From a virus: 64,000 nucleotides of DNA. Within the stretch, counting starts at the first letter, position 1. Every line of letters starts with the position of its first letter. Both the position numbers and the translations under genes were made by a program. Location: positions 32,001-96,000 of the IMG/VR virus record IMGVR_UViG_3300033388_002987, one strand, 5' to 3'. Below are positions 5,998-23,928 of this stretch, in pieces. The notes under the pieces were generated by a model. The model did no database searches and was not told the DNA's origin. It saw only the letters and a program-made list of their open reading frames with translations.

Positions 5998-6912
5998 ATG
6001 CATAAATCAACTATAAAAGCTAAGGCAAATTTTCCATTCAAAGCAGGTGTACTTCATAAGTATAAGTATGACTACACTAACACTACTTACACAGGAAACC
6101 AGCATAAAATTGATATAAATTGTCTAGTACATGGAGTGTTTAGTACAACACCTCAACAGCATTTACAAGATAAATCTGGATGCCCGCAGTGCAATATGTA
6201 TAATAAAAAGTGCACCACTGCTGAATTTAAAAAAGTTGTTAACACTGTTAATGGGTACGAATTAATTAGCACTTACACCAACGCATTAACTAAGGTAGAA
6301 ATTAAACATCTGCATTGTGGTAATTCGTGGTATATAACACCGAACAAGTTTAAACTAGGTAGACGGTGTCCAGTTTGTGCTACAACAAATTATCCTAAAA
6401 CTACCAGTGAATATATTAGGGAATTATTTTTAACTACTAATGGGGACTTAATCTGTAACTCTCCATATATTAAAAGCCATGTAAAACTATCCCACACTCA
6501 CTCATGTGGCCATACATGGGATATAACTCCAGCCAATGTGTTAAATGGACAAAGCTGTCCAAAGTGCAGAAGTACTTCTGATAATGACATATTATATATT
6601 TGGAATGTCCCACATACTTCTATATACAAAATAGGAGTCACATCAGAGAGACTTGGGTTAAAGAGACTATTAGAAGTCCATAATAGGGTAACAGTTGATA
6701 CACTTTTATCATTAGTGGCCTATACCCCAACATTTAATGCTTCTAAATTAGAAAGGTACCTACTTCGTACATATACTAGTACCCCATCATGGGACTACAC
6801 AGGTGACGGTATGACTGAATTTAGAGTGTTAAGTAGCGTAGATTTAGTAAATATACTAAAAATAATAAATGTATTAAAGGAACCCCATGAAGAAATTAAA
6901 AAGAGTGTATAA
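5998..6912 (+). CDS. Free-standing putative homing endonuclease: zinc-ribbon repeats plus a GIY-YIG-like C-terminal domain
   Basis: Repeated C/H-x-H/CG...CPxC modules (CLVHG..GCPQC, HLHCG..RCPVC, HSCG..SCPKC), then ILYIW..IYKIGVT..LE. Own TATAAT at 5972. Confidence 0.7.
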   Translation: MHKSTIKAKANFPFKAGVLHKYKYDYTNTTYTGNQHKIDINCLVHGVFSTTPQQHLQDKSGCPQCNMYNKKCTTAEFKKVVNTVNGYELISTYTNALTKVEIKHLHCGNSWYITPNKFKLGRRCPVCATTNYPKTTSEYIRELFLTTNGDLICNSPYIKSHVKLSHTHSCGHTWDITPANVLNGQSCPKCRSTSDNDILYIWNVPHTSIYKIGVTSERLGLKRLLEVHNRVTVDTLLSLVAYTPTFNASKLERYLLRTYTSTPSWDYTGDGMTEFRVLSSVDLVNILKIINVLKEPHEEIKKSV

Positions 6913-7193
6913 TGTACACTAAAACAGCCTTACAAGACACATGTAACTCCGTTCCATGCCCCTCTCCTGTAGAGCCAACTATTTGCCTTTTAGGTAAACA
7001 GTTCTCATTAGACAATGACTGGAGACATTCTCTCAGATACTTTAACAACTCACATCTACTTCAAATAGTGGAAGACTCACTCAAAGGTAAAGCCTTTGAA
7101 CTTGAGTTCAGTCAAACTGACAGCGACGGCAACGTAACTATCAAAGGTATGGACATAACAATCCCCCTCATGATCTTAAAGGAAGTTAAATGA
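6912..7193 (+). CDS. Hypothetical protein
   Basis: Coupled ORF (TAATG). Confidence 0.55.
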   Translation: MYTKTALQDTCNSVPCPSPVEPTICLLGKQFSLDNDWRHSLRYFNNSHLLQIVEDSLKGKAFELEFSQTDSDGNVTIKGMDITIPLMILKEVK

Positions 7194-10354: not shown

Positions 10355-10514
10355 AGATGAAGCTCAAGGACTATCATTCTTCACAGAAGACGATGTAACT
10401 AAAAGTCTTGATAAACTTTATGACTTTTTTGGGAGTGATATTAAGAAACTAGAACAGCAAGTAGCTTATTGGAAGCTTAGCTTCCAAAAGCAATGTGAAG
10501 CGACAAGGTAAGTA

Positions 10515-10976
10515 ATGAACCTCTCAGACGATTCCATAGATCAAATCTATGAGTCCCTAGATTTATCCTGCTACCACTTCACTTGGTCCATTATAAACAA
10601 AGGCTCCAAAGGAGACTTTGTACTAGAATACATCCACCAAGAACTACTTCAAGACAGCTCTTTAACACGCTGCCTTGCATTAGTATTATGGGATAGTATG
10701 GACTGGAATGATGCTGTAACAGCTTATAATGATGAAGATTATCTAGTATTAACTACAGAAGAAGTAGACGATGAAATGCTAGAATCTGCCCAGAGTTATT
10801 TATATGAAGTAGTACTTCCAGAAATCCCGGAGTACCTACACTATTACTTCAATGAAGATACCTATATTAAAGACTACATTAATGATACAGTTCCCGGTGA
10901 AGTTATTGCAGACCATGATGGTGCGGAGCACTCTGTAGATGTAGATGGAACAACTTATTATATTTATAGAAAATAA
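10515..10976 (+). CDS. Highly acidic hypothetical protein (DNA-mimic candidate)
   Basis: About 34 D/E versus about 6 K/R in 153 aa by hand count; YYFNEDTYIKD is loosely reminiscent of ArdA C-terminal motifs. Confidence 0.6.
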   Translation: MNLSDDSIDQIYESLDLSCYHFTWSIINKGSKGDFVLEYIHQELLQDSSLTRCLALVLWDSMDWNDAVTAYNDEDYLVLTTEEVDDEMLESAQSYLYEVVLPEIPEYLHYYFNEDTYIKDYINDTVPGEVIADHDGAEHSVDVDGTTYYIYRK

Positions 10977-12456
10977 TACGCTCGTCTCTATAAGACGTCG
11001 GGTTTGTGAAGCGAGGCTAACAAAACCAGTAAATGAAGTTTGCTGTACAAATAAGTCTTGAGATAGATAGTGACTGCCTGCTAAAGTACACGGCTATAAA
11101 ATGCAATCAACATCTACTAGTAGTGATGGAATCAGTGACACCTTAAGTGGTCTGCGGATTCGCGGTAAACTTTATTCTAGATAAAGGGTACTTGACCGCT
11201 ACTTCGGTAGTAACATATATGGTGAGTACAGTTACATGAGACATTTTGAGTCTAAGGAACTTGACATCCCAGGGTCGAAGTCCCTGGGCTACTAAAAGTC
11301 TAAACGAGACTGTAAATTGTACCGAACCCTTTAAGTAGGGCTAAATTGCAGGTTGCGGCCAACAGTCCGTACTAATAAATAGAATGATGCAGAAATGTAG
11401 AAATAGAGACTTACCTGTTCCACCACCTTATCTAAGGGCAACACCGTGAAGCCGGGGAACGACCAGTACGATTTATCGCTGACCCTAGACGGTCTTCAGC
11501 TGAAGAAAGCGTCCAGCTTCCACTCCATTTGCCTTCATTGGAGTATAACATTAAGACACCGGGATTTATACACCTTGGTTAATACAAACGTATGATATGA
11601 GCAGTAGGCTGCCTGTGTAAGTCAGGCCTGGGACACCAAAAGTCACGTAGGACCACTAGACTATAAAATCCATGGTGCTTGCTGGGATGCAAGGTGTAAA
11701 CCGTCTGACCGCTGTAGAGGACGTTAAATAGGCAGATACTAGTGAATCTAAGCAATCATTAGTAGCTAGTAACGTCAATGACAGAATAAGCTACGGCTTA
11801 GGAATCTTCGTTATGAAGGTGCCCACTACCTTAAGTGTGGGAGCTATGTTGTACCCATTCGGAGGGAACCTGACGCAGGCATAGTGAGTTCGAAACCGTC
11901 TAGTTGTGACTACTAATTAAAGTACAGACAATCCCTGTGAGCATACATAGTGGTGCAGGCCACAGCTTATTCCCTGGTTTGGGGTACAGTCCGTTCAAAT
12001 CGAGACTGGGTAAGTCCTGTTAATGTATGTTCTTAGGGGTCGTCGCAGCATGCAAGCGAATGACCGCTAATCATAAATAAACATGTACCATTATTTGTCA
12101 GTTGCGTAAATTCGAAAGAAACTGTCTGGTCAAACATATAGCTGAGGGATGTAACCTTTCAAAGTATATCTCAGCACAAACAAATAAGCTTATGGAGCTA
12201 ATAGACTAGGTAGGGAATCCTGCACTATTGGTTCTAGTAAGTTTATCGGGTCAAGCAAATGCCCCTCACAGCCCACGCCAGTATGATTGGATTCAAAGGG
12301 AGTAGTAAAATAATATGTGCCAAACAACGTGTATGAGAGTAAATACTACCGTTATTGTGATGGGTGTGCCTAGCCAGGACCTGTAGACTACCAATTCACA
12401 ATTAAAACAAAGAATAATAACGTTATGGTGCCCAGCAAACCTGGGTACTAGTAACG
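10977..12456 (+). ncRNA. Putative very large structured ncRNA, or a cluster of ncRNAs; family unassigned
   Basis: About 1.5 kb with no ORF in the track, visibly more GC-rich than the flanks, with nearly continuous hairpins. Examples: GCTAC-TTCG-GTAGT 11198-11211; CCCAGGG/CCCTGGG 11268-11288; GCTGAG/CTCAGC ~12141-12175; terminal stem 12421-12456. Confidence 0.75.
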
Positions 12457-12473
12457 ACTATTAAAGGAATTAA

Positions 12474-12851
12474 ATGAACTTCAAAATAGGTGATTCAGTA
12501 CGTATTAAAACATTAGCAAACCTAACAGAACAGTACGGAGTGTATGGCGACGGTGATATAAGGTGCTCCCCTTACTTTAAACCATCTCACAAAATATACT
12601 GTGGAAGATCTGGTACTATATCATCAATAACTGATAATGGGATTGCACTTACAGAAGCAGCTTTTGATAATAACGTATTCTCCTCGAAAGTATTAGAACG
12701 AATAGTTGAACTTACACTAGTTAAAGGGCATATACTTATATGTGATTTTGATGCATACTCAATAAACATTAATATAAATAAAGGGTACACTATACGTGAA
12801 TTTCATGATAACAAATGTATAATGGTGTATTCCCCTATAAATACTTTATAA
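12474..12851 (+). CDS. Hypothetical protein with an SH3/KOW-like start (FKIGDSVRI)
   Basis: AAAGGA RBS. Confidence 0.6.
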   Translation: MNFKIGDSVRIKTLANLTEQYGVYGDGDIRCSPYFKPSHKIYCGRSGTISSITDNGIALTEAAFDNNVFSSKVLERIVELTLVKGHILICDFDAYSINININKGYTIREFHDNKCIMVYSPINTL

Positions 12852-12859
12852 GGTAATCT

Positions 12860-13405
12860 ATGAAACAATATGGAATAATACTAGGACGCATGCAACCAAT
12901 ACATATAGGCCACCAATCACTAATAGATAAAGTCATCTCCGATGACTTTACTCCTATAGTAATTCTTGGAACAGCTCAAGAATTTGGTACTAAGAAAAAC
13001 CCTTACCACCCTCTAGAACGTATCCATATGGTAAAATTAGTCTACCCTGACATCAGAGTATACGCCATGGACGATACTGAAGACTGGGATAAGTGGTTTA
13101 CAAACTTAGTAGATATCATCAAACTAATAGCTACTACTAACCTCTCCGAGGTTACAATATACACTCACAACAAACCTGAAGACCTTATGGACTTCACGTT
13201 CAAAGGTGTTGATTACACTAACGAGTACTACAGCAAATGCTACGAAATACTTGGTATCAATACAGAAAACATCAAAACATCTCACGTCCCTATAAGAGCC
13301 TCATCAATAAGAGCGAACTTAGAAATAAACAAACAATTCCTAGACCCTAAAGTCTACAACTACATAAAGGGCTGTAATGCTAAAACCAGTAACAATAATA
13401 TCTAA
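12860..13405 (+). CDS. Nicotinamide-nucleotide adenylyltransferase (NadM-like NMNAT)
   Basis: GRMQPIHIGH (HxGH), KNPYHPLERI and IRASSIR motifs; adjacent to NAMPT. Confidence 0.85.
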   Translation: MKQYGIILGRMQPIHIGHQSLIDKVISDDFTPIVILGTAQEFGTKKNPYHPLERIHMVKLVYPDIRVYAMDDTEDWDKWFTNLVDIIKLIATTNLSEVTIYTHNKPEDLMDFTFKGVDYTNEYYSKCYEILGINTENIKTSHVPIRASSIRANLEINKQFLDPKVYNYIKGCNAKTSNNNI

Positions 13406-13958
13406 AGAAAAATTAACAAACCCTAGATTCATCAGTACCTCAGCTCTTAACATCATTAGAGACAGCCACACCATGCAATGGGAAATGATTAACTCATTAC
13501 CAACAGTTCACATACTTGTAAACAAAGTAGACTCTCAAGAAATCTTACTAGTTAAACAAGTACGCCCTCCTGTTCTCTACAACAACAATGCACCACATGG
13601 TGAGTGCATCGAGGTATGTGCTGGACTAGTAGATAAGTACAGTAGACACCATGAAGATTCTCAAACTGCTTTAGTTGCTAAAGAAGAAGTACTTGAAGAA
13701 CTAGGTTACACTACAAGTTACATCCAAAGACTACAACCTATTCTAGGTTCTGTAGGAACAGCTGGCACTAAATTACATCTATTCTACACTGAAGTAACTG
13801 ATGCCAACTTCGTTGGCCAACAATTGGAGCCAACTGAGGATATCGAAGTAGTTAAACTATCTTACGAAAATGTATTAAATTTTATTAATACAACATCAAA
13901 CACAGACTCTACAACAATTATGTTATTACAATGGTTCTTATTAAATAAAAGGAAATAA
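13377..13958 (+). CDS. Nudix hydrolase (ADP-ribose/GDP-sugar pyrophosphatase-like)
   Basis: LVKQVRPPV, Nudix box variant EVCAGLVD..AKEEVLEELGY, and EDIEV. Confidence 0.85.
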   Translation: MLKPVTIISKEKLTNPRFISTSALNIIRDSHTMQWEMINSLPTVHILVNKVDSQEILLVKQVRPPVLYNNNAPHGECIEVCAGLVDKYSRHHEDSQTALVAKEEVLEELGYTTSYIQRLQPILGSVGTAGTKLHLFYTEVTDANFVGQQLEPTEDIEVVKLSYENVLNFINTTSNTDSTTIMLLQWFLLNKRK

Positions 13959-13959
13959 A

Positions 13960-15360
13960 ATGCAATCAATACTAAGCCTTGGAGACTCTTACAAGTACTC
14001 TCACAGTTCTCAATACCCTTCCAACACAGTCTCCATGTACTCTTACATGGAATCTCGTGGAGGAAAATACGAGGCAACTGTATTCGTAGGCCTACAATAC
14101 TACTTAGTAAAGTACTTAACAATCCCTGTAACATTACAAGAACTTGAAAAGACTAAACTCAAAGCGGCTGCCCATGGCATCCCCTTCGACTACGATGGCT
14201 GGTTACACATAATAAACAACCACAACGGTCTATTACCAATAAAAATTAAAGCAGTAAAAGAAGGCTCACTAATACCTGTAAAACATGTCCTATTAACAAT
14301 TGAATCAACTGACCCAGCTGTCCCTTGGATTGCTGGCTTCGTAGAAACTCTTCTAATGAAGATATGGTACCCAACAACTATAGCAACTAAGTCTTACTAT
14401 GTAAAACAAATGCTAACTAAATATGGCTCACCTGGATGGGCTCAATTTGCATATCATAACTTCGGAGATCGTGGAGCTACATCAGTTGAAGCCGCTGCAA
14501 TAGGTGGCATGGCCCACCTAACACAATTCAGCGGAACTGACAACTTTAACGCTTTAGACCTATGCGAGGACTTCTACGAAGAACCTATGGCAGGCTATTC
14601 TGTATACGCAACTGAGCACTCTACAACTACGTCCTATGGACGTGACGGTGAAGAACAATTCGTATACAACCAACTATTAGCAAATCCTGATAAGCCTATC
14701 ATGAGCTTCGTAGCTGACTCTTACGACGTGTACAACTTCACTGAATTCTGTACGGCTCCTGGTAGTCGTATTAGAAACCTAGTTGAATCTCGTCCACACC
14801 AAAAACTAGTCTTACGTCCAGATAGTGGCAACCCTTTAGAAGTACTACCTAAAATGCTAAATATAGCATTCCACAATGGCGCCATTACTACAGGCCCTAA
14901 AGGCGCTTACATATTTACTGATTTTGCGTTTCTTTGGGGTGACGGTATTACACCTGAAACTATAGAACTAATTCTTAAAGCACTTATTGAACTTGGTTAT
15001 GCAGCTGAAAACTTCGTTTTCGGCTCTGGTGGGGACTTAATGCAAAACATCAACAGAGACACTCAACGCTTCGCGATTAAGTGCTCTAATATTACAGTAG
15101 CTAAATCCTCAGGACAAGGCTTGCAACGTACTCACTACAATGAAGACATCGACGTCTACAAAGACCCTATTACCGACCCTGGTAAAGCATCTAAACGTGG
15201 CAAAGTAACTACTTGGTATGACACCTTATCAGGTGAAATAACCCAAGGACTGGTAAACACTCCTCCAAACTTAGACTGTATTTGTTTACTACAAACTGTC
15301 TTTGAAAATGGTAAGGTAGTTAAACCCACTATATTAGCTGAAATTAGAGAGGCAATATAA
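13960..15360 (+). CDS. nadV: Nicotinamide phosphoribosyltransferase (NAMPT)
   Basis: DSYKYSH, HNFGDRG, ATEHS, VADSYD, VLRPDSG, WGDGI, FGSGG and KDPITDPGKASKRG motifs. Confidence 0.95.
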   Translation: MQSILSLGDSYKYSHSSQYPSNTVSMYSYMESRGGKYEATVFVGLQYYLVKYLTIPVTLQELEKTKLKAAAHGIPFDYDGWLHIINNHNGLLPIKIKAVKEGSLIPVKHVLLTIESTDPAVPWIAGFVETLLMKIWYPTTIATKSYYVKQMLTKYGSPGWAQFAYHNFGDRGATSVEAAAIGGMAHLTQFSGTDNFNALDLCEDFYEEPMAGYSVYATEHSTTTSYGRDGEEQFVYNQLLANPDKPIMSFVADSYDVYNFTEFCTAPGSRIRNLVESRPHQKLVLRPDSGNPLEVLPKMLNIAFHNGAITTGPKGAYIFTDFAFLWGDGITPETIELILKALIELGYAAENFVFGSGGDLMQNINRDTQRFAIKCSNITVAKSSGQGLQRTHYNEDIDVYKDPITDPGKASKRGKVTTWYDTLSGEITQGLVNTPPNLDCICLLQTVFENGKVVKPTILAEIREAI

Positions 15361-19598: not shown

Positions 19599-20579
19599 AT
19601 GACAGGTTTACAAGAATTAATTAATAAGATAAAAGCTGAGGATCACTCAGCGTACTTAGCACTGCTAAATAAGATAAATGGTGAGAAAATGGACAGGTAC
19701 GCCATTGGTAAATTATTTGCAAGTGCTACATTCACAAAAATAACTAATAATCAGTTACTACTACTACGCTCTATGAGTTTTAAAGGTGGTGATACTATCT
19801 GGCTTAGCACGTATAACCGTACACTTTCAAGCTTTGAAAATAGGTTTCAGAATACGCGTGGAGACTACCAGTTGAAATATGGTATTGATTCTCTACCAAA
19901 AGTTGATACTAAATTTATAACTACCTACCACAGAACTCAATGGCGTAAAGCTAACCCGTCTACTCGTAAGAACGGTCCTGCTAAAGGTACTCAATTTACA
20001 TTTAAAATGGATATGTTCTCACTAACCATCTTTAAAAATAGTATAAAGAACGAGTTCCTCCGCACCGAGGGTAAGAACTTTATAATGAAAGTCAATAAGG
20101 CTTTCAGTGAGTCAGAAGGTAATGATTCCCATACTAAGATACGTAATAAATTTTATGCACTGATACTTGATAATACTCCAGTACATACTAAAGCTATGAT
20201 AAATGAATTAAGTCCAACTGCTTTAAAAACTAATGGTACTTACTACATACCTGATGCTGATGAAGCAATAATAGTAGGATTCCGTTGGGGAGGTGATAAC
20301 GAAGTTAGCTACGCTACATCCTATAGCATGGACACATACTCAACTGACTTACCACTAGTAACACACAACATCGGATCAGAAGATGAACGTCACAATAATA
20401 GGTTACTATCAGCCAGCTCTATGTTACTAACAGCACACGCCTCGACAGATTGTGAAGCTTATAAGTCTGCAGCTACACGTATGGTAAAACACTTACCAAG
20501 AACTATAGTCACAGCTGCTTTAGCAAAAACACAAGCCGTAGCGACACTACGCTCAATCTTAAAGGAATCAAATGAATAA
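19599..20579 (+). CDS. Hypothetical protein
   Basis: 326-aa ORF with AAAGGA RBS. Confidence 0.7.
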   Translation: MTGLQELINKIKAEDHSAYLALLNKINGEKMDRYAIGKLFASATFTKITNNQLLLLRSMSFKGGDTIWLSTYNRTLSSFENRFQNTRGDYQLKYGIDSLPKVDTKFITTYHRTQWRKANPSTRKNGPAKGTQFTFKMDMFSLTIFKNSIKNEFLRTEGKNFIMKVNKAFSESEGNDSHTKIRNKFYALILDNTPVHTKAMINELSPTALKTNGTYYIPDADEAIIVGFRWGGDNEVSYATSYSMDTYSTDLPLVTHNIGSEDERHNNRLLSASSMLLTAHASTDCEAYKSAATRMVKHLPRTIVTAALAKTQAVATLRSILKESNE

Positions 20580-20769: not shown

Positions 20770-21851
20770 TAACAAACAATTGAACATTACACTTAAAACC
20801 TACCACGATGAGAATATAAAAATGATAATGGTAGTCTAAAGTAATAATGTTTAATTTGTTACAGCCCCTCTACACAGTAATGTGTATAGCAAATCCCTTT
20901 AATTGCTGGGAACTCTTGTAAGTTTTAATACTACAATAACCGTGAAAACAGGTTATGAATGTTTAACAAATTAAAAATAGAGACAATCAGCAGCCAAGCT
21001 CCGTATAGGAGAAGGTTCAACGACTAGTGCATTGTGCACGTACACCTAAGTAGGTGGAAATGGGGGACATCTTTAAACTAACTTTAAGAAATTTCTCGGT
21101 ATACTTACTTATCTAATTTAAGGAAGTACAATGGGAAATAAAGAAATTTTCAAACCAGTCAACTCTAAATACGGTACTCGTTACGAAGTGTCAAATCAAG
21201 GAAGACTGAGAATAACAACTAAGTGTGGAACAAAGCTCCGAACAGGTAGCTTACACCCTCAAATGCATACTACATATGTAAAAGCATCATTATCTAATAA
21301 TGGTATAAACTACACAGTACATATGCACAGACTAGTTGCCGAGGCATTCATACCGAATCCTGACAATAAACCATTCGTAAATCATAAAGATAAGGATGGT
21401 ACTAATAATAATGTATCTAATCTAGAGTGGACAACTCCCTCAGAGAATATGCAACATTCCGCTGATAATCTAGCCCTTAATAGTAAAGCTAAAAGCACAA
21501 AGAAACGTATAACTACGGTAACTCTTGACAGCTTTGAAGATTACTTAACATATATAGGCAAAGACATCGGAGGACGTACTATTATTGGTGTACAGTATAA
21601 GAAACTAACAATAGGCAATAAGCCTGTATTTAAGTGGTTTGGTGTTTATACTTGTAACAATTGTCAAGACGAAATAAGTAGCCCTTGGAATCAAACAATG
21701 AGAAGATCACTAGAAGGACGTAAGCAATTTTGCTTACAATGCTCTAGAAAGTTAAAACCTAAAGATGAAGATATAGTCTAGCCTACACAGAGATGTGTAG
21801 CTGCAGGTAATGCTGCGGACACAGCCTAACGAGCTGTGTTGAATATAAGCG
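20770..21851 (+). mobile_element. Group I self-splicing intron (1082 nt) encoding an HNH endonuclease
   Basis: P AATTGCTGGGAA 20901, Q AATCAGCAG 20985, R GTTCAACGACTA 21015, S AAGATATAGTCT 21768. The exon ends in T, the intron ends in G (21851), and removal gives the in-frame junction LSG|IPDF. Confidence 0.92.
21131..21781 (+). CDS. Intron-encoded NUMOD4-HNH homing endonuclease
   Basis: YEVSNQGR, MHRLVAEAFIPNPDNKPFVNHKDKDGTNNNVSNLEW and C-terminal CxxC pairs. The stop overlaps the S element. Confidence 0.9.
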   Translation: MGNKEIFKPVNSKYGTRYEVSNQGRLRITTKCGTKLRTGSLHPQMHTTYVKASLSNNGINYTVHMHRLVAEAFIPNPDNKPFVNHKDKDGTNNNVSNLEWTTPSENMQHSADNLALNSKAKSTKKRITTVTLDSFEDYLTYIGKDIGGRTIIGVQYKKLTIGNKPVFKWFGVYTCNNCQDEISSPWNQTMRRSLEGRKQFCLQCSRKLKPKDEDIV

Positions 21852-22855: not shown

Positions 22856-23928
22856 ATGGTTGGTAGAGTAGTACTTCCTGGTAGTACTTTAACACTACAG
22901 TGTATCATAGACGCTACTAGGTCAATGGACTACCCAAATTACGGTAAACTTAAACGCCAGGTAGAAAGTATTCGCAATCCAATTGAACAACTCTTTCGCC
23001 TTAAAGCCCTTATTGATAATCCTATGCTTGATATTAGTACTCGTAATGCAGCTACCTTAATACTAAAGGACTTACAAAATGGACAAATTTAAATGGAAAA
23101 TATTCATTGAAGTACTAGAAAATAGCCCTACTGAACTATCACTAGACCTCTTCGAAGAGTCCCTACTAGCTCTTCCTACGGAAGACCTAAACTCAGTTGC
23201 TGAAGCACTTAAATGCACCACATCAACACCTTCAGACGTCAAAACAGCTAAGCATGTTATAGAAATGCTGCAAATATTATGGCACTACCAGTAGCGCTAG
23301 TAAATACTTTACGTAGTGGCTCTATAGGGGTTGCAGGACTTGCATTAAAGAACTATATAATAAGTTTACAAAAGTTTGAGCAGGTATTTGTAATACAAAG
23401 TCTACTAGATAGTGATTTAAAGAAACTATGTGGTAGAAGTGGGGTATCCCTTTATGTTAAGCATATACTACTAGATCTAAGGACTAAAAATGGGTAAACA
23501 GTATAACCCTTGGGACCCATGTTATCAAATGTGGAAAAGCTTTATTAATACAACTTGCTTAGGATGCTCAAAGATGCAAATACTATTTAAAGTACAAGCC
23601 TTTAGGAATAATAAGCACCACAAATATTTAGATAACTTAGAATGTCTTGATAAAGTACTAAAAGATATTAACAATGGATAAGTTTCAACGTGAACTAATG
23701 ATAGTTACAATATGTAATACTAGCACTATTACTGAAGAGCAAGCATTAGCATTCACTACACAGCTTGACCATGAATTTAAGCATAATGCCTATACCCTTA
23801 CTTATCCTATGGTACGCCTAGCTAGACTATTAGACTACGATAAGTACCCTACTGAAGTTCATGCATTTACAACACATGTATTACTAAAAGCGGACATACA
23901 AAAATATAACAATAAAAGGGAGACTTAA
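22856..23928 (+). CDS. Run of five small overlapping hypothetical ORFs (22856-23092, 23079-23294, 23279-23497, 23490-23681, 23674-23928)
   Basis: Head-to-tail overlapping ORFs of 63-84 aa between the AAA+ and VWA genes. Confidence 0.55.

Follow-up and report, generated by a model that had tools for sequence, protein, structure and literature searches.

The window, by which we mean the whole stretch of 64,000 nt analyzed here, corresponds to bases 32001–96000 of a viral genome of 117,954 bp with direct terminal repeats. At window positions 10977–12473 (+ strand) lies an island of 1497 nt without any ORF of at least 60 aa, whether it is read with genetic code table 11, with table 4 or with TAG as Q. 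As stated in the original prediction, this is the longest gap without ORFs, and it is so for the entire genome, the runner-up having 901 nt. The G+C content of the island is 0.43 vs 0.376 in the genome, and the + strand is skewed towards G over C; both features extend across the whole gap.

The gene preceding the island (10515–10976, 153 aa) is intact, and its homolog in the related phage locus L034 (10824–11288; relatives are denoted below by such L numbers) is 39% identical, equally long and situated in the same position. The similarity to the antirestriction protein ArdA is weak and sub-threshold (19.4 bits vs the cut-off of 27 for the L034 homolog). The gene following the island (12474–12851, 125 aa) is an orphan, for which protein relatives were sought and none found. 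Used as anchors, the flanking orphan proteins had no relatives in IMG/VR or in a set of 5.8 billion proteins, and the gap together with the two flanking orphan genes is unmatched in GenBank phages and IMG/VR (the gap by BLASTN against GenBank phage records). The NMNAT-like and NAMPT genes at 12860–15360 occupy the spot where relatives carry RNA-repair genes. Elsewhere in the window, at 20847–21135, Rfam identifies a group I intron with 50.2 bits, a score that just reaches the gathering threshold, between the ORFs 19599–20579 and 21131–21781; as the matches are stronger in relatives (L024 18460–18832, 91 bits; L002 10654–10984, 58 bits), this is probably a split gene whose intron is conserved.

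The following features were delineated in the island:

10977–12473, + strand: the whole ORF-free island, flanked by the ArdA-like 153-aa gene and the orphan 125-aa gene.
10981–11069, + strand: M1, a small hairpin just past the stop codon, followed by a nested hairpin with the loop UGAAG; structure weakly supported by modeling.
11262–11315, + strand: M2, a 7-bp GC-rich hairpin (CCCAGGG/CCCTGGG) that precedes AAAAGUC and another short hairpin; a paralog of M4.
11515–11602, + strand: M3, a two-hairpin RNA motif, in which the sequence of the second helix varies while its loop of 18 nt, ACAGACGUUAAUACAAAC, is conserved.
11597–11672, + strand: M4, a hairpin ending with CCUGGG, followed by AAAAGUC...GACU and then AUAAAAU.
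11816–11849, + strand: M5, with the invariant hairpin CCCAC-loop-GUGGG and AGCUAU after it.
11849–11926, + strand: a probable decayed tRNA-like element containing GAGTTCGAAACC, the "T-loop" of the original prediction.
11926–12048, + strand: SM, an 18-bp closing helix around a variable insert of 35–150 nt.
12173–12206, + strand: M7, a short conserved block, 85% identical to L045 11331–11363.
12409–12468, + strand: M6, a 14–15-bp hairpin (12422–12455) with the loop CAAAC, followed by CUAGUAACGACUAUUAAAGGA.

Known RNA families were sought with Rfam cmscan in the whole window at the gathering score and in the region 10500–13000 at E≤10, and inside the gap there was no match, the GOLLD and ROOL covariance models and the models of group I and group II introns included. 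Neither ARAGORN, with default or relaxed settings, nor the Rfam model RF00005 identified a tRNA in the gap; ARAGORN calls made at -ps80 with long introns, about 200 per genome, were discarded as noise.

The gap had been described as densely structured. The motifs quoted in support of this description are present, namely, a cUUCGg hairpin near 11199–11212, GTTCGAAAC at 11888 and GTTCAAATC at 11993, but thermodynamically structure beyond chance is not borne out, as most of the gap folds no better than shuffled sequences. Compared with shuffled controls, the first 1 kb of the gap has MFE z-scores of -1.22 (+ strand) and -1.11 (- strand); the mean z-score in 120-nt windows is -0.22 inside the gap vs -0.56 in the flanking coding DNA; and among nine sub-segments folded, only the 3'-end (12340–12473) reaches z = -2.4.

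Contigs of relatives were found through the nearby DNA-polymerase exonuclease gene, which has about 70 homologs. In L034 the order of exonuclease gene, ArdA-like gene and gap is the same, and the gap (11289–12795) comprises 1508 nt. Comparable gene-free stretches are present in L040 (9250–11144) and in L024 (about 13720–15065), while the gap in L002 (4481–5509) has another gene context and is likewise the longest gap of its genome. Partial copies of the island were found at the contig ends of L026/L027 and of L031; in L003, L028, L049 and L050 a comparable gap near the exonuclease gene is absent. In a BLAST comparison with the related phage loci, the gap yielded 10 matches covering 536 nt, whereas 30 dinucleotide shuffles yielded zero to one. 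About eight short segments are common to the gap and the comparable gaps of the relatives: conserved modules account for about 470 of the 1497 nt, and the remaining two thirds or so have no detected homolog.

The modules follow each other in different orders: M1-M2-M3-M4-M5-SM-M7-M6 in this genome; M3-SM-...-M4-M5-tRNA in L034; M3-SM-M5-M5-tRNA-like-SM-tRNA-SM-SM in L040; tRNA-M5-X-M6 in L002; and Y-X-M3 in L024. The distance between common modules varies up to eight-fold, M3 and M4 being about 100 nt apart here and about 800 nt apart in L034. Order and spacing that differ between genomes indicate an array of separate units and not one conserved large fold. For the same reason, the long-range pairings I6, I7 and I14 were dropped as domain closures, since in L034 the modules enclosed by them are not neighbors, and the proposed pairing of TACAGT with ACTGTA has no comparative support, the enclosed modules being far apart or reordered in relatives.

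At the level of single modules the comparison gave another picture, with covariation demonstrating predicted base-pairing on the + strand for M3, SM and M6. It should be noted that the alignments of M3, SM and the other modules are small (3–7 sequences) and were fitted to the models, so that the pair counts given below are inflated and lean towards the structures. The covariance model R1, representing M3, recognized six distinct sequences from related phages with 65–90 bits. In their alignment 84.5% of the cells are paired, G-U pairs among them, and both sides have changed in eight of 13 pairs; the covariation score was reached by none of 500 shuffles, and slid controls had 24–49% of cells paired. 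Scans for the exact M3 pattern in IMG/VR, JGI metagenomes and GTDB genomes returned only a known relative and one chance match, which lies at the end of a large sulfatase-like ORF, is recognized by neither covariance model and was rejected.

The helix of SM includes the pairing of GCATACAT with ATGTATGT, which the original prediction had listed among its long-range contacts and which proved to be real and conserved. The model R2, representing SM, found seven + strand copies in three genomes: two in this genome, one in L034 and four in L040. The second copy in this genome is located outside the window at genome position 23631–23744 (L046:232–345), in an intergenic gap of 327 nt, and scores 84 bits with R2. 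In the helix, which has the core UGAGCA/UGUUCU, a U-U mismatch and a G-U pair are fixed, while the inserts are mutually unrelated; the one in the island contains the T-loop-like sequence GUUCAAAUC. RNAalifold predicts 18 pairs with changes on both sides in seven of them. The pair cells comprise 102 Watson-Crick, 19 G-U, one A-C and four other combinations, and the excess of G-U over A-C (19 vs 1) indicates pairing in the + strand RNA. Both M3 and SM are retained, with compensatory changes, and score 65–106 bits with models that span phages (L024, L034 and L040) having exonuclease proteins only 58–66% identical to the one of this phage.

The long terminal stem of the original prediction is also real and conserved, being the hairpin of M6 (12422–12455). 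The M6 core of 53 nt is 94% identical to the relative G001 and represents the best-conserved DNA between both genomes, for which the median aligned identity is 72%. The core has three substitutions, a single one in the loop and a compensatory pair (U-A to A-U) at the paired positions 12429/12447. M6 contains G-U pairs, it lies within the 3'-segment (12340–12473) having the lowest folding z-score, and the CUAGUAACGACUAUUAAAGGA sequence following the hairpin includes the ribosome-binding site of the next gene. A reading of this 3'-block as a repeated promoter was rejected, as it is single-copy in both genomes. The arrangement of a GC-rich hairpin, (T)ACTATTAAAGGA and ATG was observed at two gene starts, at genome position 12300–12345 and at window position 12430–12473; with just these two instances found, it could be a type of phage promoter or leader.

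The other modules are shorter or less variable. M1 is 70–80% identical to L031 5315–5405 and L027 2171–2241, and RNAalifold on these three sequences gave three pairs with changes on both sides. M2 is 90% identical to L027 2791–2821, the alignment containing one compensatory change (C-G to A-U), and M4 is 77% identical to L034 12144–12212. M2 and M4 share a motif, CCTGGG-N-AAAAGTC, of which this gap has two instances and L034 one. The match of M7 is marginal (E 0.026), and its copy in L045 is situated about 175 nt downstream of a tRNA-Lys in the L045 gap. Copies of M5 with 78–94% identity are present in L002, in L034 and, twice, in L040. All are on the + strand and confined to these islands, and a scan of IMG/VR with the M5 pattern found nothing. 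As the M5 hairpin never varies, it provides no structural evidence. In L002 and L040 it directly precedes a tRNA-like element, which begins at the next base; M5 may serve the downstream unit as a signal for its start or its processing. In this genome the segment following M5 (11849–11926) aligns locally with a T-arm/acceptor element of L034 (near 11825–11870) with a score of 15, compared to 8.0 +/- 1.5 in 300 shuffles. The arm is unpaired here, the fold has a z-score of +1.4, and neither ARAGORN nor Rfam recognizes a tRNA in the segment, which is consistent with its probable status of a decayed tRNA-like element.

The islands of the relatives contain true tRNA genes. Rfam tRNAs (47–50 bits) were identified at L040 10660–10730, L034 12394–12499 and L045 11084–11155, and mildly relaxed ARAGORN recovers tRNAs of the relatives too, with 0.005 hits/kb in shuffled versions. 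Each fully sampled island of a relative has one to three tRNAs; the island of this genome has none. Four tRNA genes of the relatives (L002 4490–4647, L034 12394–12500, L040 10427–10533 and L024 about 14713–14897) have insertions of 31–90 nt, located within the anticodon loop or adjacent to it; the L002 gene encodes its CCA end, and L034 12394–12499 scores 47.5 bits with the Rfam tRNA model. Group I is the usual type of tRNA intron in bacteria and phages, and these insertions are far too short for it. M3, M4, M5 and SM are common to the island described here and the tRNA-bearing islands of L034 and L040. In this genome the only four canonical tRNA genes (Pro, Gln, Phe and Asn) are arranged head to tail on the minus strand at genome position 6819–7128; M3, M5 and SM are all absent from this cluster, which is in the second-longest gap.

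RNA-repair genes are found near the island or the exonuclease gene in L028, L030, L034 and L045: RtcB, a T4 Rnl1-type ligase, a PNK-like kinase (HD+AAA_33), a PolyA_pol/CCA-adding enzyme and RlaP. The exonuclease neighborhood in this set of loci also contains a gene resembling the anti-Pycsar protein Apyc1. TBLASTN with RtcB has no match anywhere in this genome, and given that neither a tRNA in the island nor RtcB is present, a functional link drawn from the relatives may not hold here. In L024 (13180–15206) genes beside the island are decayed: RtcB is reduced to its last 46 residues (15066–15203), and near 13400–13700 a metallophosphatase-like reading (GDNHLVMGNHE) is out of frame, an apparent frameshift as judged from the sequence.

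Taken together, the island consists of tandem short units on one strand that are homologous to units accompanying tRNAs in relatives, as described by the term "phage tRNA/small-RNA island". The reading we consider probable, with some reserve, is that the gap harbors, on the + strand, a number of short RNA modules that fold independently of each other, and that it represents the local, partly decayed form of the tRNA/small-RNA islands located next to the split DNA-polymerase exonuclease gene in related N4-like phages. Some of the modules are probably small RNAs, and others are probably start, processing or boundary signals. Collection of homologs thus supports a non-coding region with structure at the RNA level, as seen from covariation in M3 and SM and from the G-U/A-C asymmetry on the + strand, and speaks against a single collinear architecture; the evidence favors several RNAs in tandem, which the original prediction had named as its fallback.

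That prediction's first choice, one giant structured ncRNA spanning about 1.5 kb and forming a new class comparable to GOLLD and ROOL, could be justified with the uninterrupted ORF-free stretch of uniformly raised G+C, the conserved 3'-stem and the almost equal length of the syntenic gap in L034. We find it very unlikely, because a giant RNA agrees neither with the lack of Rfam matches at E≤10 and of a folding excess (z -1.2 for the first 1 kb), nor with modules that differ in order, spacing and copy number between relatives, an SM unit repeated with unrelated inserts, tRNA genes interspersed in the homologous gaps and long-range pairings that, SM excepted, are not conserved. The island might instead be a DNA-level control region, its hairpins acting as extruded DNA in a replication or recombination site or in a cluster of N4-type promoters for the phage RNA polymerases, for which a GC-rich stem of at least 4–6 bp, a loop of 3–4 nt and a G start 13–15 nt from the hairpin center have been described (PMC9163698). 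A G about 16–17 nt from the center of the M5 hairpin is indeed the first base of the tRNA-like units in L002 and L040; a gene starts shortly downstream of M6, and another one, at genome position 12325, is preceded by a similar hairpin with ACTATTAAAGGA. Compared with these promoters at the sequence level, the stems of M5, M2 and M6 are GC-rich (5–7 bp), but the loops have 5–10 nt and not 3–4 nt. Moreover, the length and complexity of SM and M3 are too great for promoters, there are no iterons and no AT-rich tract in the gap, and sigma-70-like promoters and intrinsic terminators are not enriched in it. The G-U pairs of M3 and M6 and the 19:1 ratio of G-U to A-C in SM would be mismatches on the other strand and favor + strand RNA. 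We consider the DNA-level reading improbable.

A hidden or broken protein gene, that is, a pseudogene, a recoded gene or an intron in the flanking ORFs, is suggested by the length of the gap, as RtcB has about 1.3–1.5 kb and is encoded in this neighborhood in relatives, and by the group I intron elsewhere in the window. Each version was rejected: a recoded gene, because table 4 and TAG=Q open no long frame; a pseudogene of RtcB or another protein, because TBLASTN with RtcB against the whole genome and Pfam searches with the ten longest ORF scraps of the island were negative, as was TBLASTN against the island with ORFs of at least 50 aa from six related loci; and an intron, because the gap has no match to an intron family and lies between complete genes, the upstream one ending exactly like its L034 homolog. 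This explanation is therefore extremely unlikely. A different possibility is that the island is mostly a relic, a decaying tRNA/small-RNA island that makes no trans-acting RNA and in which selection still maintains only a few cis signals, namely, the hairpin at the 3'-end together with the ribosome-binding site of the next gene, and one or two hairpins resembling promoters. This would fit an island free of tRNAs where each fully sampled relative has one to three, a segment after M5 that resembles a broken T-arm/acceptor, the two thirds of the gap without a detectable homolog, folding no better than that of shuffles and the clear gene decay beside the island of L024. It is at odds with the compensatory changes and the scores of M3 and SM across phages with such divergent exonucleases, with the second copy of SM kept elsewhere in the genome, and with the raised G+C and the G>C skew over the whole gap, so that we consider it unlikely.

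The kind of locus is a known one, and the motifs are new, matching no Rfam family. The tRNA region of T4 is a tRNA cluster with the interspersed stable species 1 and 2 RNAs. The island resembles clusters of the T4 type in being a gene-free region of a lytic phage with short tandem units on one strand, in its content varying between relatives, and in the mixture of real tRNAs with non-tRNA units seen in the relatives; it differs in being free of tRNAs, in that M3, SM and M2/M4 match no family described in Rfam, and in that co-transcription and processing are putative here. GOLLD and ROOL have been found in phages and near tRNA genes, and the island has in common with them a long non-coding stretch and raised G+C. 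Unlike them, it lacks an Rfam match at E≤10 and a conserved collinear architecture (L034, L040, L002, L024 and L027) and is composed of repeated short modules. In the N4-like Pseudomonas phage LUZ7, the intergenic region between orf69 and orf70 was shown experimentally to produce overlapping transcripts of less than 250 nt, at least one of which is processed (PMC9163698). LUZ7 is a precedent for the reading favored here; the likeness, which is drawn from the published description, consists in an N4-type phage, a non-coding intergenic region and hairpin-type promoters in the repertoire. The island differs from the LUZ7 cluster in being longer and linked to tRNAs in relatives, and its RNAs are predicted ones.

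YrlA Y RNAs, encoded in Salmonella in the rsr-yrlA-rtcBA operon, combine a stem having a GGUCCGA-like Ro-binding motif with mimicry of the D- and T-arms (PMC4201824). SM is similar in its long closing stem, in an insert with a T-loop-like element and in the presence of RtcB nearby in relatives, whereas its inserts are mutually unrelated and have no D-arm, and its conserved strand is UGAGCA. No match to Ro60/TROVE (PF05731) was found at E≤1 in the whole genome, controls giving hits, and the GGTCCGA motif is absent from the gap. The assignment of SM to YrlA or Y RNAs was rejected on these grounds and in view of the missing Rfam match.

We infer that the modular island is transcribed and processed and has a biological role. 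It would be transcribed rightwards together with the flanking genes; the M5-type hairpins would mark the starts of individual units; and the long helices, SM and the terminal hairpin of M6, could be double-stranded sites at which processing takes place or boundaries are set, so that the enclosed inserts are released or stabilized. Since the units of the relatives are tRNAs or tRNA-like RNAs beside RNA-repair genes, the role is likely related to tRNA or translation, in host takeover or in counter-defense. Given the loss of canonical tRNAs from the island and the decayed appearance of at least one unit, probably only a part of the array is still functional in this genome. A further suggestion, which we offer tentatively, is that SM and M3 may each represent a new family of small RNAs of phages. 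In this case, the helix of SM would be a conserved double-stranded platform for processing or protein binding that frames interchangeable cargo inserts, some of which are tRNA-like; the island would then be an array of modular RNA cassettes, subject to shuffling, duplication and exchange between marine N4-like phages, and would act with the RNA-repair genes of the phages against host defenses targeting tRNAs.

In summary, the call of one giant RNA is corrected to a probable series of short modules, and the length of a stretch and the density of hairpins seen in a raw read of the sequence are not evidence for one large fold. Small-RNA clusters of lytic phages are poorly catalogued, and at least two motifs that have structural support and no match in Rfam can be added from this locus. 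Across a clade of large N4-like phages, these new motifs accompany tRNA genes and genes of RNA-repair enzymes. Provided that the modules are expressed, they would help to understand how such phages manage conflict with their hosts at the level of tRNA.
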